A DNA stretch of 64,000 nt. It comes from a virus. Both the position numbers and the translations under genes were made by a program. Every line of letters begins with the position of its first letter. Within the stretch, counting starts at the first letter, position 1. Below the pieces are notes generated by a model. The model saw only the letters and a list, made by a program, of their open reading frames with translations, was not told where the DNA came from and searched no databases. The DNA lies in the IMG/VR virus record IMGVR_UViG_3300044899_000017, positions 13,781 to 77,780 of that record; one strand, 5' to 3'. This document shows, piece by piece, positions 3,653-32,789 of the stretch.

Positions 3653-3654
3653 CC

Positions 3655-6768: not shown

Positions 6769-6795
6769 GGATCGACCCGCAGGCGGGGGTACTCT
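6768..6795 (+). promoter_or_regulatory. Putative late-class leaderless promoter
   Basis: GGGATC-N16-TACTCT, 6 nt before GTG 6802. Confidence 0.6.
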
Positions 6796-6801
6796 GTCCC
6801 C

Positions 6802-9145: not shown

Positions 9146-9146
9146 G

Positions 9147-9174
9147 GGTATCCGGCGACGAGCGGTCGTACCCT
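9147..9174 (+). promoter_or_regulatory. Putative late-class leaderless promoter
   Basis: GGTATC-N16-TACCCT, 6 nt before GTG 9181; near-identical to 60419-60446. Confidence 0.7.
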
Positions 9175-9180
9175 CCGGGC

Positions 9181-10677: not shown

Positions 10678-11093
10678 TGCCGTACGAAGAGGGCGGCACT
10701 CGGAAGTCCGTCATCGCGACGAAGGCGACCGCGCACGGCCGTCCGGTCGTCGAGCGCAAGCGCTTCGCCGGCATCGCCGCGAAGTCCGCGGCAGCGGCAC
10801 CCGCCGCGGTGTCCGTCGCGAACGCGACCGCCGCGCAGCAGATCGCCATCGGCGAGGAGTTCGTGATCATGCTGGCCGGACTCCACGAGGTCGCGACTTC
10901 GATCCTTCCCGCGGGCGCCGTCGAGGGCGACCGCCTGTACGTGCAGCTCGACGACAACTCGCTCGCCGACGCTGCCGAGGCGCTGACCGCCGGCATCCTC
11001 GAACCGGAGTACTCCCCGCTGGGCATCCTCGACGAAGTGGATGCCACGCTCGGGCGTGCGAAGGTGAACCTCAACCTGAAGGGCCTCTGCTGA
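10677..11093 (+). CDS. Capsid cement/decoration protein (DUF2190-like)
   Basis: 138 aa between protease and capsid; FAGIAA..., GDRLYV, LG..A.VNL pattern. Confidence 0.7.
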   Translation: MPYEEGGTRKSVIATKATAHGRPVVERKRFAGIAAKSAAAAPAAVSVANATAAQQIAIGEEFVIMLAGLHEVATSILPAGAVEGDRLYVQLDDNSLADAAEALTAGILEPEYSPLGILDEVDATLGRAKVNLNLKGLC

Positions 11094-12241: not shown

Positions 12242-12244
12242 CGC

Positions 12245-13162: not shown

Positions 13163-13185
13163 GGGCCGCGGGCTAGGGTGGCGGC

Positions 13186-13773
13186 GTGGACACGCCGACT
13201 CCTGATCAGCTCCGCGCCGACTCGGACCTGATCGCGGCGAAGTTCCCCGATGGGGGCGACGACGCGAAGCTAGAGGCGCGAGCTGCGACCGCCGCGGCGT
13301 TCGTCGCGAGCCTGACCTTCCGGCTGATCGAGCCGGTGGACACTTCGACCGTCGAGGACGAAGTGTTCGAGGAGGTCCCGGCGGGCCTCGTGCCGGTCGC
13401 GATCCACGCCGTCGCGGTGATGGTCGAGCGGATGGTCGTCACGGGCGCGCCCGACTTCGCGGAGCAGGCGGCGACGGGCCGCAGGCTGCGGGGCTTCTCG
13501 GCGGGGCCGTACTCGGAGCAATACTTCGCGCCGGGCGAGTTCGCGCGGCGAGGGGCGCAGCAGGGGCGCCCGCCGATGGACCCGGACGAAGCGCTCGACG
13601 CGGCGCTGTGGGCGCTCGCGACGGAGGCAGCTCGCGAGTCGTTCTTCGCGTGGGCGACGGGCGTGCAGCCGCCGGCGGGTGCGGTGACGACGTTCGACGG
13701 GCGGCGCTCGGGTGGCGGCTACTTCGGCCACGGCGTGCGTCGCGGGTTCATCGGTGGGCCTGACGGCTTCTAG
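13186..13773 (+). CDS. Putative head-to-tail adaptor
   Basis: Position; FSAGPYSEQY motif typical of adaptors. Confidence 0.6.
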   Translation: MDTPTPDQLRADSDLIAAKFPDGGDDAKLEARAATAAAFVASLTFRLIEPVDTSTVEDEVFEEVPAGLVPVAIHAVAVMVERMVVTGAPDFAEQAATGRRLRGFSAGPYSEQYFAPGEFARRGAQQGRPPMDPDEALDAALWALATEAARESFFAWATGVQPPAGAVTTFDGRRSGGGYFGHGVRRGFIGGPDGF

Positions 13774-13782
13774 GCTCGGCGC

Positions 13783-14208
13783 ATGGGACAGCTTCGGCAT
13801 ATCCTCGTCCACACGGCGACGCCGGTCCGCTTCGAGGAGGCCGACGCCGGCGCGGCGACGTGGGTAGAGGGCGAGCGCGGCGAGACGGGGCCGGAGCCGG
13901 TGCTGCGAGACGCGTTCCCGGCCGTCCTCTTCCTGCCCGGCGGGTCCGAGGAGTCCGACCACCCGCGGACGAAGAAGATCACGAGGCCGACGCTGCTGTA
14001 CGAGCCGGTGAACGCCGACACGGGGCAGCCGGTGCCCGAGCTGACGGCCGAGGACGAGCTGATGGTCGAGGCGCCCGAGCTGGCGCAGTGGACGGGCGAG
14101 GTCGAGGCGCGGTGGCAGGTCGAGGGCACGCCGCAGCCGTTCGGGCCTCCGGGGCGCGTGATCGGCGTGCAGGCGACGCTGAAGCAGGTCCGCGAAGGGA
14201 AGAAGTGA
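13783..14208 (+). CDS. Putative head closure/stopper protein
   Basis: Position; beta-rich, WQVEGTPQP motif. Confidence 0.6.
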   Translation: MGQLRHILVHTATPVRFEEADAGAATWVEGERGETGPEPVLRDAFPAVLFLPGGSEESDHPRTKKITRPTLLYEPVNADTGQPVPELTAEDELMVEAPELAQWTGEVEARWQVEGTPQPFGPPGRVIGVQATLKQVREGKK

Positions 14209-14327
14209 TGCCCGAGCCGTTCGAGACGGAATCGCTCGAAGACGGCGGCTCGACCGCGGCCGTGGCGCTGCTGCTGCTCGCGCTCGTGCTGATCGGCGTC
14301 GCGGTGGTCGTGGCGGTGCTGGGCTGA
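14208..14327 (+). CDS. Small single-pass membrane protein (39 aa)
   Basis: TGATG coupling on both sides; hydrophobic C-terminus. Confidence 0.55.
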   Translation: MPEPFETESLEDGGSTAAVALLLLALVLIGVAVVVAVLG

Positions 14328-14869
14328 TGGGCTACCACGGCGGCGAGCTGACGGACCTCGTGGCGCCGCTCGAACGCGGCGTCGAGCGGTTCGCGAAGAA
14401 CGCCGTGCCCGACGTGGGCCGCGAGCTGCGCCGACGCGTCCGCCGGCATACCCCCGTGTCGAAGACGACGCCGGCGCAAGTGCTGTCGTTCGGCCTGCGC
14501 GGCGCGGAGCTGATGCGTAAGGGCCGACCTCATGGGGCGCTGCGGGACTCGTGGCAGGTCGGCGAGACGACGGTCCTGTACGCGGGCAGCGTCTTCCGCG
14601 TGCCGGTCTTCACGCTCGATCCGGTGGCGCCAAACGTCGAGTGGGACACGCAGCCGCACCTGATCGTGCCGCGCAAGCCGGGTGGGCTGCTGACGGTTCC
14701 GACGCCGGACGGCCTCGTCTTCGCGCGGCTCGTGAATCATCCGGGCACGAGGGGCGCGCATATGATGGCGACCGCGCTTCAGGAACTCGCGGCCGAGTGG
14801 CAGCGGATCGTCGCGCGGCAGTGGCGGAACGAGGCGCGCGGCCGGCGCTTCTGGCGGGTGGGCGAGTGA
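14327..14869 (+). CDS. HK97 gp10-like tail completion protein
   Basis: TPV..G.LRDSW, APNVEW.T.PH.I, VNHPGT.G.HMM motifs. Confidence 0.8.
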   Translation: MGYHGGELTDLVAPLERGVERFAKNAVPDVGRELRRRVRRHTPVSKTTPAQVLSFGLRGAELMRKGRPHGALRDSWQVGETTVLYAGSVFRVPVFTLDPVAPNVEWDTQPHLIVPRKPGGLLTVPTPDGLVFARLVNHPGTRGAHMMATALQELAAEWQRIVARQWRNEARGRRFWRVGE

Positions 14870-15465
14870 ACTACGCGCTCGACGACCGGCATCGGAGCCT
14901 GCGCCGCTTCGTGATGAACGCGCTCGGCTCGCCGCCGTGGACGGTCCGCACGGAGCGGCAGCCGGTCGCCGACGAGGAGCGGCCGGTGGCCGTCGTCGAG
15001 GTCAGTACGGCGGTCGTGACGCTGCGGGCGCGCACGTCGATCCCGCAGGGCAACGTCGAGCGGCAGCAGACGTTCACGATCACGCTGTACCCGGTGATGG
15101 AGGAGACGGCAGCGGAGTCGCGGCTCGCGGCCGAGGCGGCGTCGCAGCAGCTCGATCAGGCGCTCGTGGTCGGCCTCTCGAACGACGACGAGACGGTGCT
15201 GTCGTATCCGGAGATGCTGCCCGTGTACGACTTCGCCGGCGTGGCGGTGAAGGGCGCGGACCGCGCCGGCCCGATGGACCCGTACGGGTGGATGCGCGCT
15301 GACGACTACCCCGTGCGGACGATTCAGGACCCGGACGACCCGCTGCGGTGGACGGTGGCGTGCGACCTGCGGGCCTCGTGGGAGCAGGCGGGGCGCGAGC
15401 GTCCTCCTGCGCCGACCGTCGGCTCGATGCCGGCGCACGACTGGACGGCGCCCGGCGGACCGTAG
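14866..15465 (+). CDS. Putative tail terminator
   Basis: GTGA overlap; position between gp10-like gene and sheath. Confidence 0.55.
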   Translation: MNYALDDRHRSLRRFVMNALGSPPWTVRTERQPVADEERPVAVVEVSTAVVTLRARTSIPQGNVERQQTFTITLYPVMEETAAESRLAAEAASQQLDQALVVGLSNDDETVLSYPEMLPVYDFAGVAVKGADRAGPMDPYGWMRADDYPVRTIQDPDDPLRWTVACDLRASWEQAGRERPPAPTVGSMPAHDWTAPGGP

Positions 15466-15492
15466 GTATCGCGTGCATTTCGGTCGTACGAT
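15465..15492 (+). promoter_or_regulatory. Putative late-class promoter
   Basis: GGTATC-N16-TACGAT. Confidence 0.65.
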
Positions 15493-15501
15493 GCGCCGCA
15501 G

Positions 15502-15771
15502 ATGGCCGAGACGACTGCAACCGCGAAGCCGGATCGAGCTGCCGAGAAGGCAGCCGCACGCGGCACGCAGTCGAATCCCGCCGCGGAACCCGACGAGGTT
15601 CGCTACTCCCGCGAGGAGCTGATCGAGCAGGCGGGGAACCTGCTCGGCGTCTCGTCTCACGCCGTGGTCGGCGGGCTGTACGGCGAGTCGGCGCAGACGT
15701 TCACGCTCGACCGCGCGACGAAGCTCGTGAACGCTTTCCTGAAGCGCCCGGCTGAAGGGGAAGAGTCCTGA
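15502..15771 (+). CDS. Small pre-sheath protein (YqzN/YkzM-like)
   Basis: YSREEL..A..LLGV....V.GGL...T...A..LV.AFL.R pattern; position before sheath as in PBSX-like tails. Confidence 0.55.
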   Translation: MAETTATAKPDRAAEKAAARGTQSNPAAEPDEVRYSREELIEQAGNLLGVSSHAVVGGLYGESAQTFTLDRATKLVNAFLKRPAEGEES

Positions 15772-17234
15772 TGGCGATGGTGCTGAAGCCGATCATCCCG
15801 CAGACGAAGATTCGTTTCGTCGGCGAGACGAGCGTGCAGGTCGCGCCGAGCCTCGGGCAGATCGTCGGGCTGCTGCTGAAGCACAATTGGGGGCCGCTCG
15901 CAACGGAGCTGGCGAAGCCCGAGATTCTTCCCGACTTCGCCGCGTGGACCCGCCGGTATGGCGACTCCGACACGGAGGGCCGCACGGCAGTCGCCGGCGC
16001 GTTCGCCGGGCACGGCGTCGCGGCAGGCTCGGGCGCCGGCGGCGTGATCCCGATCCGTCTCGGCACGAACGCAGCGCGCGCCACGAAGACTCTTGCGAAC
16101 ACGGCGGCAGTGAACGCCGTTCGCATCGACGCGAAGTGGACCGGCACCCGCGGGAACGATTACGACTACGTGATCGACGCGAACCCGGCCGACGCGTCGC
16201 AGGACCGCTTCCGGCTCCGCTACAAGGGCGCCGTGGTCGAGACGGTCGCGTATCCGCGCGCCGACCTCGCCGCGCTCGTGGCGTCGATCAATGCGCGCGA
16301 CGCGGGGAACATCACGGCGACGCTGCTCGTGGACGGCACGGGCCTCGCGCTGACCGCCGGCACGTCGCTCCTCGGCGGACTCGACGGTGACGCGCTGACC
16401 GGCGCCGACTACCTCGCCGGCCTCGACGTGTTGGAGTTCCAGCCGTTCACGATCCTCGCCGCGGCGAACCTGACGGACGGCGCCATTCAGGCGTCGATCC
16501 TCGCGTGGGTCCGCCAGCAGGAGGACGCGAACCGCCCGGTCGAGTTCGCAGTCGGGGGCCTCGCCGGCGAAACGCTCGCGACGGCCATCGCGCGTTCGAC
16601 CGCGCTCGCCGATCCGCACGTGGTGAACCTCGGCGTGGGCACGTACCGCGACGACCTGCTCGCGAAAGACCTCTCGACGGCGCAGCTCGCGCCGCGCATC
16701 GCCGGCATCCTCGCGAACCGCGGCGAGGAGCGCGCACTGACCGGTGCCGAGATTGGCGGGCTGCACGCAATCGGCCTGACCGGCGCTTCGTCCGCTGACG
16801 CCGAGTCGGCGATTCAGCGGGGCGTGACGGTGCTGATCCGCACGGACTCCGACGTGGCCGATCTTCGTGTCGCGATGGGCCTGACGACCTTCACTTCCGA
16901 GGCCGACCCGGCGCGGCCGCGGCGCATCTTCTCCGAGCCGCGCTTCATCCGGATCATGGACCTCTTCATCCGCCGCATGAAGCAGTGGGGCGACCGGACC
17001 GTGATCGGGAACGTGCCCGTGAACGAGGACACTCGCGACGCCGTGCGCGCCGAGGGTTCCCGCCTGATCGACGACCTGCTCCGGCGCGGCCTGATTCTCA
17101 CGAAGGCCGACGGCGCCGAGGAAGACCCCTTCATCCGCACGCCGGTCACGACCGACGACACGCTCCCGTTCGAGTTCGGGTGGCAGTTCGCGTACACGGC
17201 GAACTTCCTGCTCGGCGAGGGGAGGGTTCGCTAA
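15771..17234 (+). CDS. Contractile tail sheath protein (XkdK-like)
   Basis: NWGP, AKWTGTRGN, LLGGLDG, RIAGILA..ALT, RFIRIMD..W....IG motifs; 487 aa. Confidence 0.92.
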   Translation: MAMVLKPIIPQTKIRFVGETSVQVAPSLGQIVGLLLKHNWGPLATELAKPEILPDFAAWTRRYGDSDTEGRTAVAGAFAGHGVAAGSGAGGVIPIRLGTNAARATKTLANTAAVNAVRIDAKWTGTRGNDYDYVIDANPADASQDRFRLRYKGAVVETVAYPRADLAALVASINARDAGNITATLLVDGTGLALTAGTSLLGGLDGDALTGADYLAGLDVLEFQPFTILAAANLTDGAIQASILAWVRQQEDANRPVEFAVGGLAGETLATAIARSTALADPHVVNLGVGTYRDDLLAKDLSTAQLAPRIAGILANRGEERALTGAEIGGLHAIGLTGASSADAESAIQRGVTVLIRTDSDVADLRVAMGLTTFTSEADPARPRRIFSEPRFIRIMDLFIRRMKQWGDRTVIGNVPVNEDTRDAVRAEGSRLIDDLLRRGLILTKADGAEEDPFIRTPVTTDDTLPFEFGWQFAYTANFLLGEGRVR

Positions 17235-17740
17235 TGGCGACCGTCGGCCCGACCGCAAACCTGCCGGGACGCGCACGCCGCTCGGGCCGCGCGGGCACCG
17301 TGTGGGAGAACGCGCGCCATCTCGGCGAAGTGATCGCTGTCGAGTGGAACGTGAACGTGCAGCAGATCGCAGTCGTGATCGCCGGCGCGTGGAGGAACGA
17401 GCAGAAGCCCGGCGTCGAGGAGCGAGCTGGCACGTTCCGCGTGCAGGACGTTCACGACAAGTGGGCGCTCCGCGTGTGGCGCTTCGTGCGCGCCCGCCGC
17501 GACGGCGACCGCTCGGCCGCTTCGTTCCCGGAGTTCTCCGTCGTCACGAAGATCGACGACATCGGGGCGCCCGATCAGACGCGTTGGCAGCTCGACGGCT
17601 GCACGCTCTTCGAGTACTCCGGCGGGCACTCGCAGGAGGACGACCTCCTCATCCGCGAGATTCCCTTCAGCTTCCGCGACGACAAGCCGCTGCACGCGTT
17701 CGAGTACACGGACGACGGCATCGCGGTCACGGAGGCGTGA
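17234..17740 (+). CDS. Tail tube protein (XkdM-like)
   Basis: TAATG coupling to sheath; SG..G.VW, KIDD, EIPFSF motifs. Confidence 0.85.
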   Translation: MATVGPTANLPGRARRSGRAGTVWENARHLGEVIAVEWNVNVQQIAVVIAGAWRNEQKPGVEERAGTFRVQDVHDKWALRVWRFVRARRDGDRSAASFPEFSVVTKIDDIGAPDQTRWQLDGCTLFEYSGGHSQEDDLLIREIPFSFRDDKPLHAFEYTDDGIAVTEA

Positions 17741-17859
17741 TGCCTTCGCTCGGGTACAGCTCGCCGCAGCCGCAGGACACGCGCTCGCGCGCAGGCCGGC
17801 CTCGCCGCGACCGGCGTGCGAACCGCGCGGCTCGCGCAGCGCGCCGGCGCAACCGCTGA
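17740..17859 (+). CDS. Arg-rich 39-aa peptide
   Basis: TGATG coupling; MPSLGYSSPQPQDTRSRAGRPRRDRRANRAARAARRRNR. Confidence 0.4.
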   Translation: MPSLGYSSPQPQDTRSRAGRPRRDRRANRAARAARRRNR

Positions 17860-17868
17860 GGCGGCATC

Positions 17869-18270
17869 GTGGTCGCCGACTACGAGGCCGCGTGGGTCGC
17901 GCTTCAGCGACTCGTGGCGTCAAAGACTCAGCACGGCCGCGAGCCGCTGCTGACCGCGATGGCCGACCTTCTGGCCGAGCATCGCGTTCCCGCCGGGGAG
18001 CTGTCGCGGCTTCTCCGGCTGCATGGCGTCGAGGTCGAGCGTGCGCGCTCGATGTCGGCCGAACTCGACCGGGACGAGCTGTCCCCTTCCGCCGTGGACG
18101 ACGTTCACGACGGGACCGCAGCTCCCCGGCCTTCATTGATCGGAGGCGATCACGATGGGCGGAATGACAGCAGCAGACGAGAAGGCGAAGGACGGCGCGG
18201 TGGGGCAGGACGACCGCGATCCGGGGCCGGCAGCGCAGGTGGCCGCAGCGGAGCCGCGGTCGGCGCCTGA
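17869..18270 (+). CDS. Hypothetical protein
   Basis: Helical N-terminal half looks real; 3' end overlaps the chaperone gene by ~115 bp. Confidence 0.5.
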   Translation: MVADYEAAWVALQRLVASKTQHGREPLLTAMADLLAEHRVPAGELSRLLRLHGVEVERARSMSAELDRDELSPSAVDDVHDGTAAPRPSLIGGDHDGRNDSSRREGEGRRGGAGRPRSGAGSAGGRSGAAVGA

Positions 18271-19082: not shown

Positions 19083-22000
19083 GTGGCCGAGGGCACGGTC
19101 CGCGGAGCGTTCGACCTCGACACGAGGCCGGCGGTCCGCGGCGTCCGCGATTACCGGCAGGAGGCCGAGCGCGCGGACGCGGCCACGAAGTCGCTCGGGT
19201 CGAGCATCGACGACGCGTTCGGGCCGTCGGAGGTCGCGCATATCCAGACGGTGCGCGAGGAGATGAAGGGCCTCGGCACGCAGTCGAGGGAGACGCGCAT
19301 CGAGGTCCGCGATCAGTGGAAGGGGATGCGCCGCGAGATAGAGCGCGAGGCCGCGGGGATCAGCTCGTCCATCGCCGCGGTGAAGCAGCGGATGGGGGCG
19401 CTCGGGCGCGAGCGGGCGACTCCGCACGTGGACGTGTCGGGCATCACGGCGGCTATCGCGCAGGTGGACCTCCTCGAATCGAGGCTGAACTCGCTGTCGA
19501 GGCAGCGGGCGACGCCGCGAGTGGCGATGGGCGGCGGCTTCGGAGGGGCCGCAGCTCGCGCGGCCTCGGGCGCCGCCGGCGGTGGGCGCGCTGGCGTCTT
19601 CGCGAACTCCGGCACGGGCGGCTCGGGCTTCAGCGTGGGGCCGCTGTCAGGCCGTGCGCTCGCGCTCGGCGCGGGCCTCGGGCTACCGGCCGTCTCGTCG
19701 CTCGCGGGAGGCGCTGTGGGCCTCGGAGGCTCCGCAGGGGGTGCGCTGCTCGGCGCGGGTGCTGGCGGGTTAGCGGGCTTCGGAGCGCTCGCTGTGGGCG
19801 GGGGCAGCGCGTTCTCCGTGGCGAAGCCGGCGCAGACGGCGCTCGCAGCGACGATCAAGGTCCAGACGAAGTACACGGCGGCGGTGCGCGACTTCGGGCG
19901 GGCCTCGACGCAGGCGAAGAACGCGAAGCGCGAACTCGATCAGGCGTACGCGGATAACCGCGGGGTGCAGCACGCCACGCGCCAGCTCTCGGCCTTCAAG
20001 CGCGAGTGGAAGTCGCTAACGGCGCCGGGCCGGCGCGACTACTTCGGGATGATCGGCGACGTAACGCAGATCGGCCGGCGGGTGGCTCCGAACCTCGCGG
20101 CGAACGCGAACACGAGTATGCACGCGGTGCGCGGCGCGGCGACGAACTTCGCGGGGTTCGCCGCGGGGAACGAGACGCAGCGCTTCCTCGGCTTCGAGAC
20201 GCAGACGTTCGCGCGCGAGCTGCCCATCGCCGAGCGCTCGCTCGAAAACGTGACGCTCGGGATCGAACACCTGATCCGGGCCGCGACGCCGTTCTTCCAC
20301 GAGGCGAACGTGTGGGTCGAGCATTGGTCGGCCGGCTGGGCGGACTCGACCTCGAACATCGACGAGCAGCACCGGAAGATGGAACCGCTCGTGCAGTCGT
20401 GGCGGACGTGGTGGCACCTGCTCGGCACCACGAAGACGCTGCTGCGCGACATCTTCACGGCGGGGCAGCCGTCGGGCGACTCGCTCGTGATGTCGCTCGA
20501 TCACACGTTCCAACATTGGGACGACTGGATCAAGCAGCACCCGGCCTCGACGCGGAAGTGGTTCGCCGACTCGGCGGACTCCGTGCGCGGGATGGCCGAT
20601 GCGCTTCGCCACGTCGTGCATTGGCTGTCGCAGATGGCCGACCTGCTGCGGCCGCTGCTCGACCGCTTCTCGCAGCTCGTCGGCTTCGCGTCGCAGCTCG
20701 GGCTGATCGGCACGCCGGGCGCGCTCGCCGCGGTGATGGGCGGCGTCCGCGGCTTCCGCGGCCGCGGGGGCGGGGGTGCCGCCGGCGGGATGGGCGGCGG
20801 GATGGTGCCGTACTTCGGCGCGCCGGCGCCGGCGGCTGCGATGGGCGGCGGCATGGCCGGTGCTGGCGGCATGGCCGCGGGCGGCGCGGCGTACCTCGCA
20901 GCTCGCGGCCGGATGACGTGGGGATCGCTCGGGCCTATCGCGACGCCGGAGGCGTTCGCGCAGCGCTACGGCGGCGTGGCCGGCGCGCGCTACGGGATGC
21001 CGATGTCGCAGGTCGGCGCCGTGCGCGGACCGTGGGCGAGCCGCGCGGCCTCGGGCATGGGCCGCGTCGGCGGGGCGCTGAAGGGAGCTGGCCGCGCGGC
21101 GCTGCCGCTCGCGCTCGGCTTCTCGGCGCTCGACTTCGCGACGTTCGACGGTGGCTTCGGGCAGAAGCTCGACGCCGGCCTCTCGTCGCTGACGCTCGGC
21201 GCGCTGCCGCGGCCGCGCACCGCGGCGCAGACGCAGGACGCCGCGAGTCAGTACGTGCAGAAGTTCCAAGCCTCGCACGTGGACGCGCTGCCGGCGACGC
21301 TCGGCGGCGGCACGACCGCGCTCGGGCGGATCAATGCGGAGATAGGGCGGCTGTCGGGGAAGAAGGGCCTGACGAGCGGGCAGCGGCTCCTCGGCGGCGG
21401 CGACGCGTCGATGTTCGGCCTCTTCTCGACGGGGCAGGGCAACCGCCTTACGGACGAGCAGATGGCCGAGAATAAGAAGCGGATCGAGCTGCTGAACGAC
21501 GAGCGCGCCGCGCTGATCGGCACGAATCATCAGATGGCCGTGGCGCGCAACCGGCGCCGGAACGAGCAGTCGAAGCTCGACGCGACGAGGTTCGGCGCGG
21601 AGCTGCCCGGCGCCATGAGCGTCTACCGCCGGCGCGGCCTCTCCGTCGGCGATGCGATGGACAAGACCGTGAATCAGGTCGAGGGCAAGCTGAAGAAGAT
21701 TCGCGGCGCCGGCGTCGAGACGCTAGGCGAGGCGTCGCTCGCGTGGGCGCGCGAGCTGGCGAAGCACAATCCGGCGCTGAAGAAGCAGGTGGACGAGCTG
21801 AACGACGCCATCGAGGCGCGGTTCCGCCGGATGGGTAAGCGCGTGCAGATCGTGAACGGCGACATCCTGACCGGCTCGAAGCGGGAGTGGCGCGACATCC
21901 GGACGGCGATGTCCGATCCCATCGAGAAGGCGCGCGCGCAGATGACGGACGACTTCACGGCGATTCAGCAGAAGGCCATCGGGTCGCTCGTGTCGATGGG

Positions 22001-24035
22001 CTTCAACCGCGGCGACGCGCAGTCTCTCGTGCAGGGCATCGAGAAGGGCGGGAAGGCCGGCACCACGGCGAGGCAGGACACGAACCTCGGGCCGCAGGGC
22101 GCGAGCGGGTTGCGCGCGTCGGACATCGCGCGGCCGGGCTTCACGCCGACGAAGAAGGCGCGCGGCGGCGTGATCGGCGGGCGCGGGCTGATGGACACGG
22201 TGCCCATCGGCGGCGGCGGGATGGCGGCACCGGGCGAGGCGTGGATCGCGAACCGGCACACGCTCGGCGACCTCTCGCGTGCCACGGTCGCGATGTACGG
22301 CCTGACGGCGCAGCAGATCATCCGCGGCGAGACGCGCCGACACGGCTACGCGCGTGGCGGGATGGCTCGCGGCGGTCCGACGGGCGGCGGCATCGGCGGC
22401 GCGAACCCGGCCGTCTCCGAGATAGCTCGCGCGGCGATGTCGCAGTTCCCCGGCCTGTCCGTCACGTCCACGACGGGCGGCGGGCACGCGACGAACTCGC
22501 TGCACTACCGCGGCGCGGCTATCGACCTCGCCGGCGGGAACATGAACGCGGCCGCGGCGTTCATCGGGCAGCAGTTCGGGAAGACGCTCGCCGAGGGCAT
22601 CCATAACCCGAACCTCTCCGTGAAGGGCGGGCACACGGTGTCGCCGGCCTTCTGGGGTGCGAAGACGTGGGCCGAACACGCGAATCACATTCACATCGGC
22701 GCGTTCGGCCTCGGCGCGAAGGGCGCCGCGGGGATGATCGGCGGCGGCATGGGCGGCGGCGGGAAGCAGTTCCCGCACGTGGCGCTGCACGGCCTCGGGC
22801 GCCAGCAGCCGGGCGTGCCGGGAGCGCTGCGCCAGCGCGGCGGCGACATCTTCGCCGCGGGCCTTCAGCGGAAGCTCAATAAGGCAATAGACAAGAAGAA
22901 CGCCGCGATGGGCGGCGGCGGCGGGAGCCTCGCGGGCTTCTCCGGCGGCGGCAGCGCGACCGCGAATATGCGGCTCGGCCGGAAGATGATGCTCGCCGCG
23001 GGCTTCGGCGGCGATCAGTGGGGCGCGCTGCGGACGCTGTGGCAAGGCGAGTCGGGGTGGTCGAACACCGCGCGGAACCCGTCCTCGGGCGCGTTCGGCA
23101 TCCCGCAGGCGCTCCCGCCGGGCAAGATGGGGCCGAAGGCTGCCGCCGGCGATCCTGCGGCGCAGATCGCGTGGGGCCTGAACTACATCCGCGGCCGCTA
23201 CGGCTCGCCGGCGGGCGCGCTGTCGGCATGGCAGGCGCGCTCCCCGCACTGGTACGCGCGCGGCGGGCGCGCCGCCGGCGGGACGCTGCTCGTGGGCGAC
23301 TCGCTCGGCGTCGGTACGTCCCCCTACCTGAAGCGGATGCTCGGCGACGTGACGACGGACGCCGTGGTCGGCCGGTCGAGCGCGAGCGGCGTCTCCGCGA
23401 TGGCCGAGAAGATGCGCGGCGGCGACTTCAGCTCGATCTTCTTCGACCTCGGCACGAACGACGCGTCGGCGAAGCAGCTCCGCGCGAGCCTGAACCGGGC
23501 ACGCGACCTCGCGCACGGCATCCCGATCACCGCGGCGACCGTGCGCGGGCCGGGAGCTGCCCGGAAGAACTCGATGCTGCGCGACTTCGCGAGCGAGGGC
23601 CTGATCAGTCTCGTCGATTGGGCCGGGCACTCCGGGGGCCTCGTCGGCGGCGACGGCATCCACGCGTCGGGCAAGGGCTATAAGGCGCGGGCGCAGATGG
23701 TCGCCGGCGCGCTTCAGCAGGGTTCCGTGATGGATTGGGGCGGCGGCTTCAAGAACGGCGGCTCGATGGTCACGAACGGGCCGACCGCGTTCGTCGCCGG
23801 CGAGGGCCACCGGCGCCGCGAGCGCGTGACCGTCTCGCCGGACCTGACCGGCCGCGGCGGGCAGCACGCCGGGCCGCGCGTCGTGATCGAGAAGGGGGCG
23901 GTGCAGGTGCATATCGACGGCAGCGGGCACTCGCCGAAGGACATCGAAGCGCTGGCCGAGAAGGTCGGCACGAAGGTCGTGCGGAAGATCATCGACGCGA
24001 TAGACCGCAAGGGCGGCGTGGCGGTGATCGACTGA
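19083..24035 (+). CDS. Tape measure protein with C-terminal M15-like peptidase, lytic transglycosylase and SGNH hydrolase domains
   Basis: 1650 aa Ala/Gly-rich helical; H..NSLHY.G.AID..H..H.H; ESGW..ARNPSSGAFGIPQ..YI..RYG; GDS/GR/GTND/DGIH. Confidence 0.92.
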   Translation: MAEGTVRGAFDLDTRPAVRGVRDYRQEAERADAATKSLGSSIDDAFGPSEVAHIQTVREEMKGLGTQSRETRIEVRDQWKGMRREIEREAAGISSSIAAVKQRMGALGRERATPHVDVSGITAAIAQVDLLESRLNSLSRQRATPRVAMGGGFGGAAARAASGAAGGGRAGVFANSGTGGSGFSVGPLSGRALALGAGLGLPAVSSLAGGAVGLGGSAGGALLGAGAGGLAGFGALAVGGGSAFSVAKPAQTALAATIKVQTKYTAAVRDFGRASTQAKNAKRELDQAYADNRGVQHATRQLSAFKREWKSLTAPGRRDYFGMIGDVTQIGRRVAPNLAANANTSMHAVRGAATNFAGFAAGNETQRFLGFETQTFARELPIAERSLENVTLGIEHLIRAATPFFHEANVWVEHWSAGWADSTSNIDEQHRKMEPLVQSWRTWWHLLGTTKTLLRDIFTAGQPSGDSLVMSLDHTFQHWDDWIKQHPASTRKWFADSADSVRGMADALRHVVHWLSQMADLLRPLLDRFSQLVGFASQLGLIGTPGALAAVMGGVRGFRGRGGGGAAGGMGGGMVPYFGAPAPAAAMGGGMAGAGGMAAGGAAYLAARGRMTWGSLGPIATPEAFAQRYGGVAGARYGMPMSQVGAVRGPWASRAASGMGRVGGALKGAGRAALPLALGFSALDFATFDGGFGQKLDAGLSSLTLGALPRPRTAAQTQDAASQYVQKFQASHVDALPATLGGGTTALGRINAEIGRLSGKKGLTSGQRLLGGGDASMFGLFSTGQGNRLTDEQMAENKKRIELLNDERAALIGTNHQMAVARNRRRNEQSKLDATRFGAELPGAMSVYRRRGLSVGDAMDKTVNQVEGKLKKIRGAGVETLGEASLAWARELAKHNPALKKQVDELNDAIEARFRRMGKRVQIVNGDILTGSKREWRDIRTAMSDPIEKARAQMTDDFTAIQQKAIGSLVSMGFNRGDAQSLVQGIEKGGKAGTTARQDTNLGPQGASGLRASDIARPGFTPTKKARGGVIGGRGLMDTVPIGGGGMAAPGEAWIANRHTLGDLSRATVAMYGLTAQQIIRGETRRHGYARGGMARGGPTGGGIGGANPAVSEIARAAMSQFPGLSVTSTTGGGHATNSLHYRGAAIDLAGGNMNAAAAFIGQQFGKTLAEGIHNPNLSVKGGHTVSPAFWGAKTWAEHANHIHIGAFGLGAKGAAGMIGGGMGGGGKQFPHVALHGLGRQQPGVPGALRQRGGDIFAAGLQRKLNKAIDKKNAAMGGGGGSLAGFSGGGSATANMRLGRKMMLAAGFGGDQWGALRTLWQGESGWSNTARNPSSGAFGIPQALPPGKMGPKAAAGDPAAQIAWGLNYIRGRYGSPAGALSAWQARSPHWYARGGRAAGGTLLVGDSLGVGTSPYLKRMLGDVTTDAVVGRSSASGVSAMAEKMRGGDFSSIFFDLGTNDASAKQLRASLNRARDLAHGIPITAATVRGPGAARKNSMLRDFASEGLISLVDWAGHSGGLVGGDGIHASGKGYKARAQMVAGALQQGSVMDWGGGFKNGGSMVTNGPTAFVAGEGHRRRERVTVSPDLTGRGGQHAGPRVVIEKGAVQVHIDGSGHSPKDIEALAEKVGTKVVRKIIDAIDRKGGVAVID

Positions 24036-24916
24036 TGGCCGTGCGCGGCTCGGGTCCGGGCATCTTCAGCGGCGTTCGCGGCTCCGGGCCGGGCGTCTCG
24101 GGCGGCGGCGGCAGCATCCACGGCGTCGGGCCGGGCATCTACGGGCCGCAGGGGATCGGCCGGAAGGGCGAGGGGCTGCGGGTCCGCATCTCGCGCATAA
24201 ACGGCGAGACGCCGAAGGGCGTGCTAGCGAAGCCGCTGTACCTGCCGGCGACGCTGCGCGGCTTCGGGTGGACGGAGGAGTTCTCGCACGTCGAGTACGA
24301 CACGGTGCGCTCCGGTCAGTTCTCGCAGCCGGCGATGGGGCCGGCCTCGGCGCGCCAGCTCCGCGACGTGGACGACACGGAGACGCTGACGATGGAGTGG
24401 CAGCCGGCGTGGCTCGTCGAACACGGCGTCAATCCCGCACACGTGGCGAGCGCGCTTCGGGCCGCGGGCCGCTCGCGGAAGGCGGTCGAACTCCTCGCGT
24501 ACATCCGCCGCGGCGATCCGGCGCTGCTGCGGATGGACATCACGATCCGCTCGCTGAAGACCGAACTCCGCGAGGGCGAGCCGGACACGCTGTACTACGT
24601 GCTGCGCTTCAAGGAGTGGCGCAACCCGTCCACGCGGCGCAAGGGCGCCGGGCACGCGTCGAGGCTGCCGACGACGCACACGCTTACCGCCGACGACTCG
24701 CTGTACTCGCTGTCGATGCACTACTACCGGACGCACGAGGGGTGGGACGACATCGCTCGGGCGAACCGGATCAAGGGCTTCGGGAAGAAGACTCCGCTCG
24801 TGAAGCACCGGCGCTTCAAGGTCGGCTCGAAGATCAAGATTCCGATCCCGTCGTTCCCGACGGTGCGAGGTCCCGGCCACGTGCAGCCGGGATCGCACGG
24901 GCCGAGGATTCGCTGA
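24035..24916 (+). CDS. LysM-domain baseplate/tube initiator (XkdP-like)
   Basis: C-terminal LysM HTL..DDSLYSLS..YY..W..IARAN..G.KIKIP; N-terminal GSGPG repeats. Confidence 0.85.
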   Translation: MAVRGSGPGIFSGVRGSGPGVSGGGGSIHGVGPGIYGPQGIGRKGEGLRVRISRINGETPKGVLAKPLYLPATLRGFGWTEEFSHVEYDTVRSGQFSQPAMGPASARQLRDVDDTETLTMEWQPAWLVEHGVNPAHVASALRAAGRSRKAVELLAYIRRGDPALLRMDITIRSLKTELREGEPDTLYYVLRFKEWRNPSTRRKGAGHASRLPTTHTLTADDSLYSLSMHYYRTHEGWDDIARANRIKGFGKKTPLVKHRRFKVGSKIKIPIPSFPTVRGPGHVQPGSHGPRIR

Positions 24917-26166
24917 TGGCGACGGCGCTACAGCGGCGCGCGCGGAAGGACCGCACGGGGCGGACGCAGCGCCGGCGCTCGCACACGGCGCGCACGCGGC
25001 ATCCGAACCTCGCGAAGTACTACGGGAAGCGGCTGCCGTCCGTGACGGCGGGCGAGTTCGACTTCTCGCTGACGCTGCTCCGAGGGAAGGGCAATCGCTC
25101 GATCCCGCTCGACTCGATGCTCGTCTCGTTCGAGTGGGCCGACGAGGAGTCGATGCTGTCGGGGAACCTTCAGCTCCGGCGACCCGACGCGGAAGACCGC
25201 AGCTCGCTCCCGATTGGCTCGGGCCACCGCGTGCGGTGCCGCGTGAAGTGGGGCGCGCATTGGTACGAGCTGTGGACGATGCGCTGCTCCGCGCCGACGA
25301 CGACCGTCGAGACGGGCGAAGTGTCCGTGGACCTGAAGGACGACCTCGACCTCGTGCGCCGCGGCGTGCGGCACTACCTCTTCAGGAAGACGAAGCGGCG
25401 GAAGCACGGGTACTTCGGGCACGACGTGCTGCGGATCGCAGCTCGCCGCGAAGGCATCCGGCTCGGGCAGATCGCGAAGTGCCGGCACCGGATGGACAAG
25501 ATCGACATCCACGGCTCGTTCCTTCAGCTCGCCGAGAAGGTCTACACGGAGGAGCGCACGAAGACGGGCCGGAAGTTCGTGCTGCGGATGCGCGACGGGC
25601 GGTTCGAGGTCGTGCCGTACAAGCGGAACGCGATCCTCTACATCCTCGCCGAGCAGCTTCGGACCGCGAGCGTCGTGAAGACGCCGAAGAAGGAAAACCC
25701 GGTGACGGTGCTGAAGGGCCGCGCCCGCATCGGGAAGGGCAAGGCCGCGAAAAAGATCCGGCACACGGACTACCGTCGGGACCTCGTGGCGCGCTTCGGC
25801 TACATGGAGAAAGAGAAGGACTTCGGCCGGGTGAAGTCGCACGCCGACCTGCGCGCGCAGATGCGCCGCGAGCTGGCGCAGGAGTACAAGATCGACACGA
25901 CGTTCTCCGTGCAGCATCAGGGCATCCCGTTCATCCGCCGCGGCGACGGCTGCCAGCTCGTGATCCCGTCGGAGGACATCACGGGCACGCGCTCGTTCGT
26001 GTACGCGACCGCCGGCCGGCATCAGGTGCAGCGCGGGACCTACACGTCGGAGTGGGACTTCAACCGCGACGACCTGTACGAGCAGGACCGCGAGCGGCGC
26101 GAGAAGGAAGCGCGCGCCCGGAAGCGCAAGGCGCGGAAGAAGCGCAAGCGCGGGGATCAGCACTGA
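24916..26166 (+). CDS. Baseplate hub protein (XkdQ-like)
   Basis: Position after LysM gene; GRKFVLR..G, FGYME, GIPFIR.GD motifs. Confidence 0.75.
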   Translation: MATALQRRARKDRTGRTQRRRSHTARTRHPNLAKYYGKRLPSVTAGEFDFSLTLLRGKGNRSIPLDSMLVSFEWADEESMLSGNLQLRRPDAEDRSSLPIGSGHRVRCRVKWGAHWYELWTMRCSAPTTTVETGEVSVDLKDDLDLVRRGVRHYLFRKTKRRKHGYFGHDVLRIAARREGIRLGQIAKCRHRMDKIDIHGSFLQLAEKVYTEERTKTGRKFVLRMRDGRFEVVPYKRNAILYILAEQLRTASVVKTPKKENPVTVLKGRARIGKGKAAKKIRHTDYRRDLVARFGYMEKEKDFGRVKSHADLRAQMRRELAQEYKIDTTFSVQHQGIPFIRRGDGCQLVIPSEDITGTRSFVYATAGRHQVQRGTYTSEWDFNRDDLYEQDRERREKEARARKRKARKKRKRGDQH

Positions 26167-26522: not shown

Positions 26523-26806
26523 TGGCGCGCACGGTGTACGACGAGCTGGCCGACCGGCTGCACGGCCTCGCGCATCGCACGGCGAAGGCCGCGTCGCCGC
26601 CGGTCGAGCGCGGGAAGGTGACGCACGCGGACCCGCTCGTCGTCGAGATGATCGACTCCGACCTGACGCTCGAAGAGGGCGACCCGGACGTGGAGATAGA
26701 CCGCGGCCTGCTGACGGACCGCCCGGCGGTCGGCGACACGGTGCGGGTCCATAAGGACGGCGGGCCGGGCGGCTCCGACTACGTGATCGCGGGGGTGGTG
26801 GAGTAG
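26522..26806 (+). CDS. Baseplate spike-like protein (XkdR/DUF2577-like)
   Basis: GKV...PL.V, VGD.V.V...YVI.G; position. Confidence 0.7.
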   Translation: MARTVYDELADRLHGLAHRTAKAASPPVERGKVTHADPLVVEMIDSDLTLEEGDPDVEIDRGLLTDRPAVGDTVRVHKDGGPGGSDYVIAGVVE

Positions 26807-27345
26807 TGGCGGGCCTCGACGGCTTCGAGCTGATCCCGGACGACGACGACCTCGCGCCGAGCGCCGACGAGGAGCTGAACGCGGCCGCGGCCTCGGCGCT
26901 CGAAGACCCGGAGGCGCCGATCACGGTCCCGACGGACGATCCCGACCCGCTCGGGTACTCGTGGGCGTTCGACTTCGCGGCGGGGCGCTTCATCCGGCAG
27001 GGTGGGCGCCCGGCGCGCGTGACGGGCTACAAGGCGCTAGAGCAGCGGTGCCTGATGGCGCTGTACTCGGCCCGGTACGCGCACGCCGTGTTCTCGGACA
27101 CGTTCGGCGTCGAGCGGCCGCAGGAGGGCATCGGCGAGGCCGGCGACGGCGCGCACGTCGCCGCCGAGGACTGGCGCGTGCAGCTCCGCGAGGCGCTGCT
27201 CGCTTTCGACGACGTGGCCGATGTCTCGCTCGACACGGGATACGACCCGGTGGACGGCGTGATCTACATATGGAATCTCGTCGTGACGACGAACGAAGAG
27301 GTCGAGCTGCCGTTCGACGACATAGCGATAAGCGTGGAGGACTGA
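26806..27345 (+). CDS. Baseplate gp25-like wedge protein (XkdS/DUF2634-like)
   Basis: WAFDF..G.F, G..AL.Q....AL...RY...FS..FGVE, REALL motifs. Confidence 0.8.
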   Translation: MAGLDGFELIPDDDDLAPSADEELNAAAASALEDPEAPITVPTDDPDPLGYSWAFDFAAGRFIRQGGRPARVTGYKALEQRCLMALYSARYAHAVFSDTFGVERPQEGIGEAGDGAHVAAEDWRVQLREALLAFDDVADVSLDTGYDPVDGVIYIWNLVVTTNEEVELPFDDIAISVED

Positions 27346-27348
27346 GCG

Positions 27349-28560
27349 ATGGCGACGGCCGACGAGGAACTACTCGACTTCCTGCCGCTGTACCCGGACG
27401 ACGACGAGGAGTCGATCCTCGAACGGATGCGGGTATGGGCGAACGAGGGCCTAGACCCGGCCATCGACACGGACGCATGGGTGGACACGTCGGAGGGATC
27501 GCACTGGCACGCGTGCGTGATGCCGACGGTGCGCGAGCTGGCGCGCCTGTACGACCTCGCCGGCACTGAGGTCCCGGCCTCGGGCTTCCCCGTGTGGGCG
27601 TGGGCCGACTACCTCGACGACCACGCCGAGGTTCAGGACATCGTGCGGCTGCCGGCGACGCCGGCGGCGGGCGTGGCGACCTTCAGGGGGCCGGAGGGCA
27701 CGCTGATCGCGACGGGCACGACCGTCTCCGTCGAGGTCGTGACGGAGGACGCCGCGGTGCCCGAGTTCGAGGTCACGGCGGGAGGCGTGATCCCGGCGCC
27801 CATCGCGCCGGCGGTGGTCGGCGTGCTGTCCGTGCCGATCAGCGCGACGGAGGATGGCGTCCTCGGGAACGTCGCCGCCGGCGCCATCACGGAGTTCTCG
27901 ACGCCGCCACCCGAGCCGACGGTCACGGTCACGAACGCCGACCCGACGTTCGGCGGCACGGAGGCCGAGTCGGACGAGGGCCTGCGCGAGCGCGTCCTCG
28001 GCGCCTTCACCGGGCAGGGCGCCGGCAATAAGCGCGATTACGAGCGGTGGGCGCGCGCGTGGGCCGGCGTCGGCCGCGTGACGGTGATCCCGCTGTGGAA
28101 CGGGCCGGGCACGGTGAAGGTGATCGTGACGGACGCGAACGGCGACCCGGTGACGCCGGAGACGGTGGCCGGGCTTCAGGCCGACCTCGACCCGGTGCCC
28201 GGACACGCCGAGGGGCGCGCTCCGGTGTCCGCGAACGTGACGGTCGAGACGGCCACGGCGCGGCCTATCGAGGTCGTCGCGCTGATCGAGTTCGAGCCGG
28301 GCTACTCCCTCGACGGGGATGCCGGCACGGTGGCGCTGCGGACGATGGTCGAGGACGCGCTGCGCCAGTACATCGAGCGGGTCGAGCCGGGCGGCGAGGT
28401 CGTGATCGCGAAGGTGCGCGGCGTGATCGTGACCGTGCCGGGCGTCCACGATGTCGGCGCCGTCACCATCGAAGGCGGCGCGGTGAACGTCGCCATCGAC
28501 GACGACCCGCCGGAGGTCCCGACGCTGCCCGTGCCGACGCTGACCGAAGGCGCCGTCTGA
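27349..28560 (+). CDS. Baseplate J-like protein (XkdT-like)
   Basis: DTSEGS, YLD.HA, A...G..GNV, GG...ESDE.LR.R, GN..DY..WA...GVG..P.WNGPGTVKV. Confidence 0.93.
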   Translation: MATADEELLDFLPLYPDDDEESILERMRVWANEGLDPAIDTDAWVDTSEGSHWHACVMPTVRELARLYDLAGTEVPASGFPVWAWADYLDDHAEVQDIVRLPATPAAGVATFRGPEGTLIATGTTVSVEVVTEDAAVPEFEVTAGGVIPAPIAPAVVGVLSVPISATEDGVLGNVAAGAITEFSTPPPEPTVTVTNADPTFGGTEAESDEGLRERVLGAFTGQGAGNKRDYERWARAWAGVGRVTVIPLWNGPGTVKVIVTDANGDPVTPETVAGLQADLDPVPGHAEGRAPVSANVTVETATARPIEVVALIEFEPGYSLDGDAGTVALRTMVEDALRQYIERVEPGGEVVIAKVRGVIVTVPGVHDVGAVTIEGGAVNVAIDDDPPEVPTLPVPTLTEGAV

Positions 28561-31358: not shown

Positions 31359-32789
31359 GTGGGCGAGTTCCGCATCTTCACGGGCGCCGGCGGGAAGCGG
31401 TTCGTCGGCGAGACGGGTCAGGGCGAGCTAGTCGAGCGCATCTCGCGCGCGGCGGGCGCTCCGATCAACTCGAACGCTCGCGATCAGGCGGCGGCGGGCC
31501 TGCTGCACTCCATCGGCCTTCACGCGCAGGCCGAAGTGATCATCCTCCACGCTCGCGGCGTGCCCGGCTTCGGGCCTGCGAACCCGGTGAACCGCTCGAC
31601 GCACTGCCGGTTCAATGACGGCGCCGCGTACCGGCGCTTCGTCGCGGGCTTCAAGCTCGGCGTGCGCGGCCGCGGCGTGGACACGGCGAACACGCCGGCG
31701 TTCCTCGCCGAAGCGCATAAGCAGGGCCTCGCGTTCTTCCTGACCTACCCCGGCTCCGTCGGCGAGCGCCAGCACGTGAACGAGGCGACCTCGACGTGGG
31801 GGAAGCGGCTCGTGCCGCAGTTCCACGCCGCACCGGGCGACCGTGGCCGCAACGTCCGCCGGCTCCGGAACGTCCTCGTCGTCCTCGGGCTGCTCGACAA
31901 ACGCGGCAGCGTCTTCGGCACGAAGGTCGAGGCCGCGGTCCGCGTCTTTCAGTTGCACCACCACCTGAAGGTCGATGGCGTCGTCGGCCCGATGACGTGG
32001 GCGCAGCTCGTCGTCGCGTACCGGCAGAAGAAGAAGCACCCGCCGAAGCCGCCGGCGCCGCATCCGCCGCACACGCATCCGCCGGCGCAGCCGATCCCGC
32101 ATCAGCTTCATAAGGGCGTGGTGAACGGGCCGGACGTGTCCGAGCATCAGGGAGACGTGGACTGGCGGAAAGTGTCCGTCGGCATGAACGAGTTCGCCGG
32201 CGTCCGCGTGAACGACGGGGACCACCGCGACTCGCGCTTCTCGAAGGCGCGGCTCGACTCGATGCGCGCGCAGCGGGTGATCCCGATGCCGTACGCGTAC
32301 CTGCGGGTGGCGTCGCCGGGGAACGGCGAGCGCAACGGCGCGGCCGAGTGCGATATGACGCTCCGGTGGGCGCACGAGGCCGGGTGGGGGAAGCCCGGCG
32401 ACCTACAGATAGCGGCCGACTTCGAGGAGGCGAACGGGCAGTCGCTCCGGAAGGCCGGCGTGCATCTCGTGCAATGGGTCGCGCGCTACCACGACCGGAC
32501 CGGCGCGTGGCCGACGCTCTACAGCTCGCCGGCGTTCCTCGCCGCGGTGATGGCGACGCTGAGTCCGCAGGCGCGGGCGATGCTCGCGAAGTGCCCGCTG
32601 TGGATCGCGCACGTCGGGCCGGGCGGGAAGCCGCGCACGGCGAAGCCGACGGTGCCGCGGCCGTGGAAGCGGTACACCTTCTGGCAGTTCTCGTGGGTCG
32701 GGCGGCAGCCGGGAATCTCGACGCCGTGCGATATGTCCATCTTCAACGGGTCGTTTAGCGCACTGCTGCGACTCACCATCCGGAGGTAG
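31359..32789 (+). CDS. Endolysin: M15-like peptidase + PG-binding domain + GH25 muramidase
   Basis: STH..GVD..E.QHV; FG..VEAAV..FQ....LKVDGVVGP.TW; DVSEHQG.VDW, ADFEE, LWIA, FWQFS, DMS. Confidence 0.9.
   Translation: MGEFRIFTGAGGKRFVGETGQGELVERISRAAGAPINSNARDQAAAGLLHSIGLHAQAEVIILHARGVPGFGPANPVNRSTHCRFNDGAAYRRFVAGFKLGVRGRGVDTANTPAFLAEAHKQGLAFFLTYPGSVGERQHVNEATSTWGKRLVPQFHAAPGDRGRNVRRLRNVLVVLGLLDKRGSVFGTKVEAAVRVFQLHHHLKVDGVVGPMTWAQLVVAYRQKKKHPPKPPAPHPPHTHPPAQPIPHQLHKGVVNGPDVSEHQGDVDWRKVSVGMNEFAGVRVNDGDHRDSRFSKARLDSMRAQRVIPMPYAYLRVASPGNGERNGAAECDMTLRWAHEAGWGKPGDLQIAADFEEANGQSLRKAGVHLVQWVARYHDRTGAWPTLYSSPAFLAAVMATLSPQARAMLAKCPLWIAHVGPGGKPRTAKPTVPRPWKRYTFWQFSWVGRQPGISTPCDMSIFNGSFSALLRLTIRR

Follow-up and report, generated by a model that had tools for sequence, protein, structure and literature searches.

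O-acetylation of peptidoglycan protects the wall from lysozymes and restrains lytic transglycosylases, and, to our knowledge, any role of it as an obstacle to phage entry and any answers of phages to it are largely unexplored. Both lytic transglycosylases and lysozymes are blocked by this modification, the level of which is higher in stationary phase, and in the patA-patB-ape1 cluster of Neisseria the third gene encodes an esterase that frees N-acetylmuramic acid (MurNAc) for lytic transglycosylases (PMC6174289). Wall-hydrolase motifs are already known in the tape measures of mycobacteriophages, such as motif 3 of TM4 and the Rpf-like motif 1 of Barnyard (Piuri and Hatfull 2006, PMC1796659), and these motifs aid the infection of stationary-phase cells (PMC1796659). 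SGNH domains have likewise been described in tail tips, and MurNAc O-acetyl groups play a part in the adsorption of phage phi11 (PMC4876445, PMC7048315). Neither a report of an SGNH/GDSL domain inside a tape measure nor a description of a phage O-acetylpeptidoglycan esterase was found in the literature, the coverage of which was incomplete. The stretch analyzed here (the window) comprises 64 kb, positions 13,781 to 77,780, of the 77,780-bp virus record IMGVR_UViG_3300044899_000017, from an uncultured metagenomic phage, and carries an open reading frame (ORF, 19083-24035) for a 1650-aa tail tape measure protein in which a zinc peptidase-like, an SLT-like and an SGNH domain follow one another. 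The best reading of the SGNH domain, which has about an even chance of being right, is that it would de-O-acetylate the wall and so license the neighbouring glycan cutter.

A first-pass annotation of this DNA had read the tape measure as holding an M15-like peptidase, an SLT and a full SGNH domain, and these domain calls were borne out by synteny, homologue profiles and structural models, the peptidase proving to be LAS/M15-like. All the motifs that it quoted were found in place in the same frame of the + strand, namely HATNSLHYRGAAID at aa 1135 (nt 22485) and HANHIH at aa 1199 for the peptidase, ESGW at aa 1323 and NPSSGAFGIPQ at aa 1332 for the SLT-like domain, and GDSL at aa 1405 (nt 23295), GRS at aa 1430, LGTND at aa 1456, VDW at aa 1511 and DGIH at aa 1524 for the SGNH domain. 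The three-domain observation is confirmed and lies far beyond chance. Scans of the whole protein against Pfam and NCBIfam gave no significant SGNH or M15 match and no SLT match in Pfam, and the cut-out domains reached only sub-threshold Pfam scores (SLT 0.021, Lipase_GDSL 0.023, HH_signal 0.15). Since Pfam was nearly silent, the domain calls rest on homologue profiles and models.

The SGNH domain is compact, starts 8 residues past the SLT-like domain and presents all the blocks of the SGNH superfamily in order (GDS, Gly, the Asn of GxND, and DxxH). The search of this piece among 1.84 billion representatives recovered 673 protein clusters at E<=1e-3. In 82 aligned relatives, the nucleophile Ser, the Block II Gly, the Block III Asn and the Asp-x-x-His were invariant or at least 90% conserved, and over 82 to 160 diverse sequences the catalytic Ser, Asn, Asp and His showed little or no variation, as would be expected of an active enzyme. 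The AlphaFold model, with a predicted local distance difference test (pLDDT) score of 94.4, presented five strands alternating with helices, in agreement with the three-layer alpha/beta/alpha SGNH fold and its five-stranded parallel sheet, and more than 500 SGNH chains scored Z>=8 against it in VIA-align. When the family profile was compared with the PDB, the best match was the 159-residue C-terminal domain of S. aureus OatA (OatA-C; 6WN9/6VJP), aligned at full length with E 2.7e-17, five orders of magnitude ahead of the next unrelated entry (7.7e-12), with S. pneumoniae OatA-C (1e-7) and PatB (0.008) in lower ranks. Foldseek also placed the OatA-C entries on top, with template modelling (TM) scores of 0.77-0.82, and the VIA-align Z scores were 20.1 for 6WN9 (root-mean-square deviation (rmsd) of 2.0 Å over 147 residues), 19.7 for 6VJP and 19.4 for 5UFY, followed by the non-OatA enzymes TesA (18.1), the CE3 acetyl esterase TcAE206 (17.9), PatB (16.9) and Est24 (16.8). 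The domain is OatA-C-like as judged by profile and model, the structural margin over generic SGNH enzymes being small and the sequence margin larger. The OatA-like character proposed in the first-pass annotation was therefore upheld by both profile and fold, and the structure search placed the peptidoglycan-specific OatA-C closest among solved entries, ahead of TesA. Its second label, Ape-like, applies to the proposed function only; the Ape1 (4K3U) match was local, covering 35 residues around Block V at E 2e-4, and the beta-sandwich insert of Ape1 is absent.

Several observations bear on the direction of the reaction. No AT3 domain was found in the tape measure protein by domain scans, no AT3 or MBOAT acetyl-donor gene occurs anywhere in the complete phage genome, and Pfam PF19040 neither matched at E<=0.001 in that genome nor came up at E<=10 when the domains were scanned; the lack of such a fusion, of such a gene and of this match favours hydrolysis. 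No acetyl donor is known or expected outside the membrane, which was also counted for hydrolysis. Gly1411, which is nearly invariant in the family, stands at the fourth position past the nucleophile and aligns to an Asp of S. aureus OatA that we take to be residue 457. In S. aureus OatA-C, a water that restrains turnover is held jointly by this conserved Asp, the nucleophile and a carbonyl of Block V, and the Asp was proposed to be a transferase adaptation of the S. aureus-type clade (PMC9487903); the Gly at this position was thus counted for hydrolysis. Moreover, acetylating the wall next to its own glycan cutter would counter the cassette, which again favours a hydrolase.

The two domains that precede the SGNH domain were supported by several lines. 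In the peptidase domain, the LAS zinc ligand pattern appears as S-x-H-x2-G-x-A-x-D and H-x-H, and H1141, D1148, H1202 and H1204 were invariant in the alignment of 19 tape-measure-type relatives. The motif was aligned by phmmer to the zinc site of the Hedgehog N-domain (E 0.006). The model of aa 1101-1396 yielded two confident domains, the first of which matched best the C-terminal domain of VldE, a zinc L,D-endopeptidase (Z 11.1, rmsd 2.6 Å, 100 residues), and then the M15 endolysin LysECD7 (Z 7.8) and the Streptomyces Zn DD-peptidase 1LBU (Z 7.5), so that aa 1108-1210 is predicted to be a LAS-fold zinc peptidase. The SLT-like region matched NCBIfam NF052397 (2e-23) and phrog_12661, annotated as transglycosylase (1.6e-19), and E1323, S1324, Q1342 and Y1373 were invariant in the same 19 relatives. 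Its fold matches were moderate, with Z scores of 7.4 for MltF, 7.3 for MltC, 7.1 for MltE, 7.0 for phiKZ gp144 and 6.9 for Slt70. The sequence leaves both transglycosylase and hydrolase chemistry possible for this domain, and the de-O-acetylation argument holds for either, because O-acetylation also hinders lysozymes (PMC6174289).

The assignment of the protein itself is based mainly on gene order. The large ORF, separated from the tail sheath gene by several small ORFs, sits after it and before the YqbQ-like and baseplate genes, which is the tape-measure position of PBSX/P2-like contractile tails, and by synteny this ORF is the tail tape measure gene. Residues 1-1006 had no PHROG, Pfam or NCBIfam match, and phrog_991 matched the protein over the SLT part only. 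Among isolated phages, the SLT-like domain recurs in proteins annotated as tape measures in Streptomyces and Mycobacterium phages and the LAS domain in such proteins of Rhodococcus and Gordonia phages, relatives in two other loci (L003 and L004) come after major tail protein genes, and language-model (Atlas) features of aa 1-1000 led to tape measure clusters at 0.90-0.92, which was taken as a lead only. As the N-terminal 1006 residues match no family model, the tape measure call rests on synteny, the domain matches, these two loci and the language-model lead.

The association of the SGNH domain with wall hydrolases proved to be recurrent. The architecture survey covered the 150 best of the 673 clusters and four IMG/VR loci, and 39 of the surveyed proteins exceeded 1200 aa. 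Among these long proteins, 21 presented LAS, SLT and SGNH in order, seven SLT then SGNH, and another seven LAS then SGNH, while SGNH was the only domain detected in the remaining four; in about a dozen of them, including the present protein (P0001), the SGNH domain started <=15 residues past the end of SLT. A medium class of 450-620 aa followed the order SLT-SGNH-LAS or SGNH-SLT-LAS, and a third class consisted of short SGNH proteins of 250-290 aa with signal peptides. In all, SGNH, SLT and LAS recurred together in at least three orders. For example, in the IMG/VR contig L001 a gene for a 562-aa protein with SGNH, SLT and LAS (8068-9753) directly follows a 1231-aa ORF (4021-7713), neither having a PHROG match, which suggests that the cassette can shift between a gene of its own and a place within a long protein. 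On a 240-kb Solirubrobacteraceae contig, a 495-aa SLT and SGNH protein (L017:9428-10912) is surrounded (2643-17869) by genes for a VirB4-like AAA_10 ATPase, a TcpC-like protein, a TraG/VirD4 type IV coupling protein and a TrwC relaxase. Its location amid type IV secretion system (T4SS) genes indicates the wall hydrolase of a conjugative element, and, since this protein belongs to the phage-type clade, the cassette is common to phage tails and conjugation machines. In a distant phylum, the 785-aa Firmicutes homologue from Ignavigranum ruoffiae (L073:9428-11782) has the SGNH domain fused to an N-terminal glucosaminidase (PF01832, 5.2e-34), another peptidoglycan hydrolase partner. The 2207-aa protein P0013 of a Thermoleophilaceae contig (L055:5081-11701) adjoins an integrase and an AAA_25 protein, and no tail genes were recognized among the few neighbours scanned; some long carriers of the cassette are therefore not proven phage tape measures. 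No tblastn match to the SGNH domain was found in 50,697 isolated phage records. In a FastTree phylogeny of 184 SGNH domains, one clade (Shimodaira-Hasegawa (SH)-like support 97) gathered 40 tape-measure-type proteins, 21 short multi-domain proteins and only three others, and this phage/T4SS clade was sister to the cellular secreted proteins. A recent capture of a host gene was ruled out, as the phage and T4SS domains form a clade of their own and are not nested among cellular copies.

The cellular homologues offered further context. A scan of one genome per species, which used an alignment of the closer homologues, revealed 80 loci, nearly all from Thermoleophilia (Solirubrobacterales, Thermoleophilaceae and Gaiellales). 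In 21-22 of the 80, an MBOAT gene (PF03062, 3.8e-28), a DUF459 gene (PF04311, 2.9e-42, the PatB family) and the SGNH gene follow one another on one strand, with a second SGNH gene placed divergently upstream of MBOAT; L033:6915-10735 is an example, as are L027, L032, L035, L038, L042, L050, L052, L061 and others. These loci are not independent, because the genomes are related. A second sample of 151 evenly drawn Thermoleophilia genomes, independent of the locus scan, contained the SGNH family in 37 genomes and DUF459 in 49; both were present in 18 (12 expected), and in 11 of the 37 SGNH-positive genomes the two lay within ~3 kb. The arrangement has the same layout as the Neisseria patA-patB-ape1 cluster (PMC6174289) and suggests that Thermoleophilia O-acetylate a wall polymer by the PatA/PatB-type route described for Gram-negative bacteria.

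The co-occurrence of the domains, the PatA/PatB-type contexts of the homologues and the lack of an acetyl-donor partner make de-O-acetylation the best reading, and they lend indirect support to the mechanism inferred in the first-pass annotation. In the proposed mechanism, tail contraction would expel the tape measure into the envelope, where the SGNH domain would locally hydrolyse the 6-O-acetyl groups of MurNAc. The C6 hydroxyl, which lytic transglycosylases require and whose acetylation also hinders lysozymes, would thus be freed; the SLT-like domain would then cut the glycan and the LAS peptidase the peptide stems, and DNA would pass through the local gap in the wall. In this reading, we infer that the domain is a hydrolase and not a transferase, that it acts on peptidoglycan, that the domains are ejected and refold, and that the host has O-acetylated peptidoglycan. 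Both the benefit of tape-measure motifs in stationary phase and the rise of O-acetylation in that phase fit the proposed mechanism.

Other points weigh against de-O-acetylation of peptidoglycan. The mechanism assumes that globular domains can travel in the lumen of the tail and, once ejected, fold and become active. The nearest solved relatives are acetyltransferases and not esterases, and homology cannot settle the direction of the reaction because PatB was itself first mis-called an esterase (PMC6174289). Furthermore, the fold score of OatA-C lies only ~2 Z units above those of generic SGNH esterases and thioesterases, and the Gly in place of the OatA Asp is weak evidence, because replacing that Asp raised the transferase and the esterase rates alike. 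The clade of phage and T4SS domains is separate from the cellular proteins with PatA/PatB-type context and sister to them, so that the context evidence stems from a related subfamily, and the phage gene itself has no such cluster around it. Polymers besides peptidoglycan are also acetylated by MBOAT-SGNH pairs. Finally, the sheath protein of this phage had no relatives in the 151 Thermoleophilia genomes and no tblastn match in the 50,697 isolated phage records, and host assignment failed.

The substrate could also be another acetylated envelope polymer, such as a teichoic or teichuronic acid, another secondary wall glycan or an exopolysaccharide, the SGNH domain being an esterase that clears the path of the tail. 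Glycan deacetylation is the usual interpretation of SGNH domains on phage tail fibres and tail tips (PMC3853054, PMC9862828), carbohydrate esterases come near OatA-C in fold score (the CE3 enzyme TcAE206, Z 17.9; Est24, Z 16.8), and MBOAT-SGNH systems acetylate several polymers (PMC12148441). However, this domain is part of the tape measure, which the tail conceals until it fires, and is not borne by a fibre; it stands within 8 residues of a domain that cleaves the peptidoglycan glycan and recurs with peptidoglycan hydrolase domains, having been detected alone in 4 of the 39 long proteins. Together with the five orders of magnitude by which the peptidoglycan-specific OatA-C leads the profile matches, and with cellular kin that adjoin DUF459 of the PatB family, these features render another polymer unlikely, albeit worth keeping in view. 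A lipase or lysophospholipase acting on the cytoplasmic membrane or another lipid layer and aiding the DNA channel would agree with the high ranks of TesA/lysophospholipase L1-like entries (9OTV, E 7.7e-12; 4JGG, E 3.9e-9; TesA, Z 18.1), yet these matches are weaker than that of OatA-C, the cellular homologues are secreted and found in acetylation clusters and not in lipid-metabolism loci, and the recurrent partners are wall hydrolases, all of which makes a lipid substrate improbable.

The domain might instead be an O-acetyltransferase or transacetylase that re-decorates peptidoglycan at the entry site, for instance as a shield against host autolysins or the lysins of competing phages. This is very improbable given that neither the protein nor the phage genome encodes an AT3/MBOAT donor, that no acetyl donor is, as far as we know, to be expected outside the membrane, that a Gly stands in place of the Asp that holds the water in the S. 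aureus OatA clade, and that acetylation would defeat the glycan cutter next to it. What speaks for it is that OatA-C and also PatB, its closest kin among solved structures, are transferases and that enzymes once classed as SGNH 'esterases' have later been moved to the transferases (PMC6174289). The SGNH domain could, lastly, be catalytically idle in this protein and serve as a glycan-binding module or a structural spacer, in line with the mainly structural role of tape measures and with the dispensability of tape-measure wall-hydrolase motifs for viability (PMC1796659). An idle domain is the least probable of these possibilities and scarcely to be expected when the nucleophile, the oxyanion-hole Asn and the Asp-His pair vary little or not at all among 82 to 160 diverse sequences. 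A broader proposal can be put forward tentatively, as possible though short of probable: the family may constitute a class of peptidoglycan O-acetyl esterases, so far undescribed, that uses the C-terminal scaffold of OatA. It would be an Ape counterpart for Gram-positive-type walls, used by Thermoleophilia cells in their PatA/PatB-type clusters, by phage tape measures and by conjugative T4SS, and would in each license a neighbouring glycan cutter on O-acetylated peptidoglycan.

The virus record is a complete genome with direct terminal repeats at its ends, and the G+C content of the window is ~71%. The phage is of the contractile-tailed myophage type (Table 1), with a fibre-like protein gene also located downstream of the tape measure gene, along with the endolysin gene. 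A prophage or tailocin was ruled out because the record, 77.8 kb long, has terminal repeats, encodes a terminase and is complete as a virus genome. The large terminase was at best ~26% identical to that of any isolated phage, and with its unmatched sheath protein the phage is very distant from cultured ones. The occurrence of the SGNH family, and nothing else, suggests Thermoleophilia as the host. GH25 (Chalaropsis-type) enzymes tolerate 6-O-acetylated peptidoglycan, which is circumstantial for the GH25 endolysin of this phage. Within the tape measure, the conserved C-terminal tail had no family match in the domain scan. Motifs of the [YF]A.GG type, two of which stand a few residues before the peptidase and SGNH domains of this protein, occurred 103 times in the 39 long relatives, whereas shuffled sequences gave an expectation of 19. 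Most of them lie where a domain begins, and they may be the mark of module joints or of processing sites.

Table 1. Features of the window around the tape measure gene, with positions in the window
Feature	Residues	Position	Strand	Characteristics
Tail sheath gene		15771-17234	+	phrog_279 2.8e-42
Tape measure protein gene (P0001)	1650 aa	19083-24035	+	single open frame
YARGG motif		22347-22361	+	just 5' of the peptidase domain
Predicted LAS/M15-type zinc peptidase domain	1108-1210	22404-22712	+	H1141-x6-D1148 and H1202-x-H1204
SLT-like lytic transglycosylase / lysozyme-like domain	1290-1390	22950-23252	+	catalytic E1323-S1324
YARGG motif		23253-23267	+	between the SLT and SGNH domains
Compact SGNH domain	1399-1548	23277-23726	+	Ser1407, Gly1430, Asn1459, Asp1524, His1527
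SGNH catalytic codon	Ser1407	23301-23303		
SGNH catalytic codon	Asn1459	23457-23459		
SGNH catalytic codon	Asp1524	23652-23654		
SGNH catalytic codon	His1527	23661-23663		
Conserved C-terminal tail	~90 aa	23733-24005	+	common only to P0003, P0004, P0011
YqbQ-like tail protein gene		24268-26166	+	3' of the tape measure gene; phrog_400; Pfam YQBQ 4.1e-9
Baseplate gene		26806-27345		downstream of the tape measure gene
Baseplate wedge (J-like) gene		27349-28560	+	phrog_6 8.3e-54
Endolysin gene		31359-32789	+	PG_binding_1 and GH25 muramidase
GpA-type large terminase gene		61517-63382		

If the de-O-acetylation reading is true, a tape measure that brings its own de-O-acetylase beside a glycan cutter would be a virion-delivered counter to wall modification, and the PatA/PatB-type clusters of Thermoleophilia would offer a candidate for the matching esterase. 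The presence of the cassette in phage tails and in conjugation machines points to a common tool for DNA passage through modified walls. In practical terms, the isolated 150-residue SGNH domain is small and should express easily.

Among known systems, OatA-C of S. aureus (6VJP, 6WN9) and S. pneumoniae (5UFY, 5UG1) shares with the phage domain the compact ~150-residue SGNH scaffold, has its GDS, G-R, GTN, V-D-W and D-G-I-H blocks in register with it, and acts on the MurNAc C6 of peptidoglycan. Unlike OatA, the phage domain has neither an AT3 membrane fusion nor a PF19040 match, is 24-25% identical in sequence, and presents a Gly for the Asp four positions after the nucleophile; since it resides, again unlike OatA, in a virion protein beside wall hydrolases, hydrolysis rather than transfer is to be expected. 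The Neisseria Ape1 (4K3U, 4K7J) has the job that is proposed here, the removal of the 6-O-acetyl group of MurNAc, which gives lytic transglycosylases access (PMC6174289), and the cellular homologues of the phage domain hold the equivalent position after MBOAT and DUF459/PatB-type genes. However, the phage domain belongs to another SGNH lineage, spans ~150 aa in place of ~390 and is devoid of the inserted CBM35-like beta-sandwich that characterizes Ape1 (PMC6174289).

Mycobacteriophage tape measures likewise carry host-related peptidoglycan-degrading modules, thought to act on ejection and to be of aid when the wall is modified; there, a single hydrolase motif is found, whereas three enzymes are chained in the present protein, one of them of the esterase type. 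The Tal proteins of S. aureus siphophages (phi11 Gp44 and 80alpha gp59) also bear an SGNH/GDSL domain in the virion, presumed to aid wall penetration, but theirs is located on a baseplate hub protein, is larger (~230 aa) and carbohydrate-esterase-like, has no transglycosylase pairing, and its activity is presumed. The wall hydrolases of conjugative T4SS (PrgK, TraG, TcpG and CwlT type) perform the same task, the local opening of the wall for DNA passage, although as stand-alone proteins of the secretion system and not as parts of a tail. The described ones of the Gram-positive type carry SLT, CHAP or LytM domains, and we know of none with an SGNH domain. In this regard, the short SLT and SGNH relatives, with or without LAS, one of which lies in the T4SS locus L017, fall in the same clade as the SGNH domains of the tape measures.

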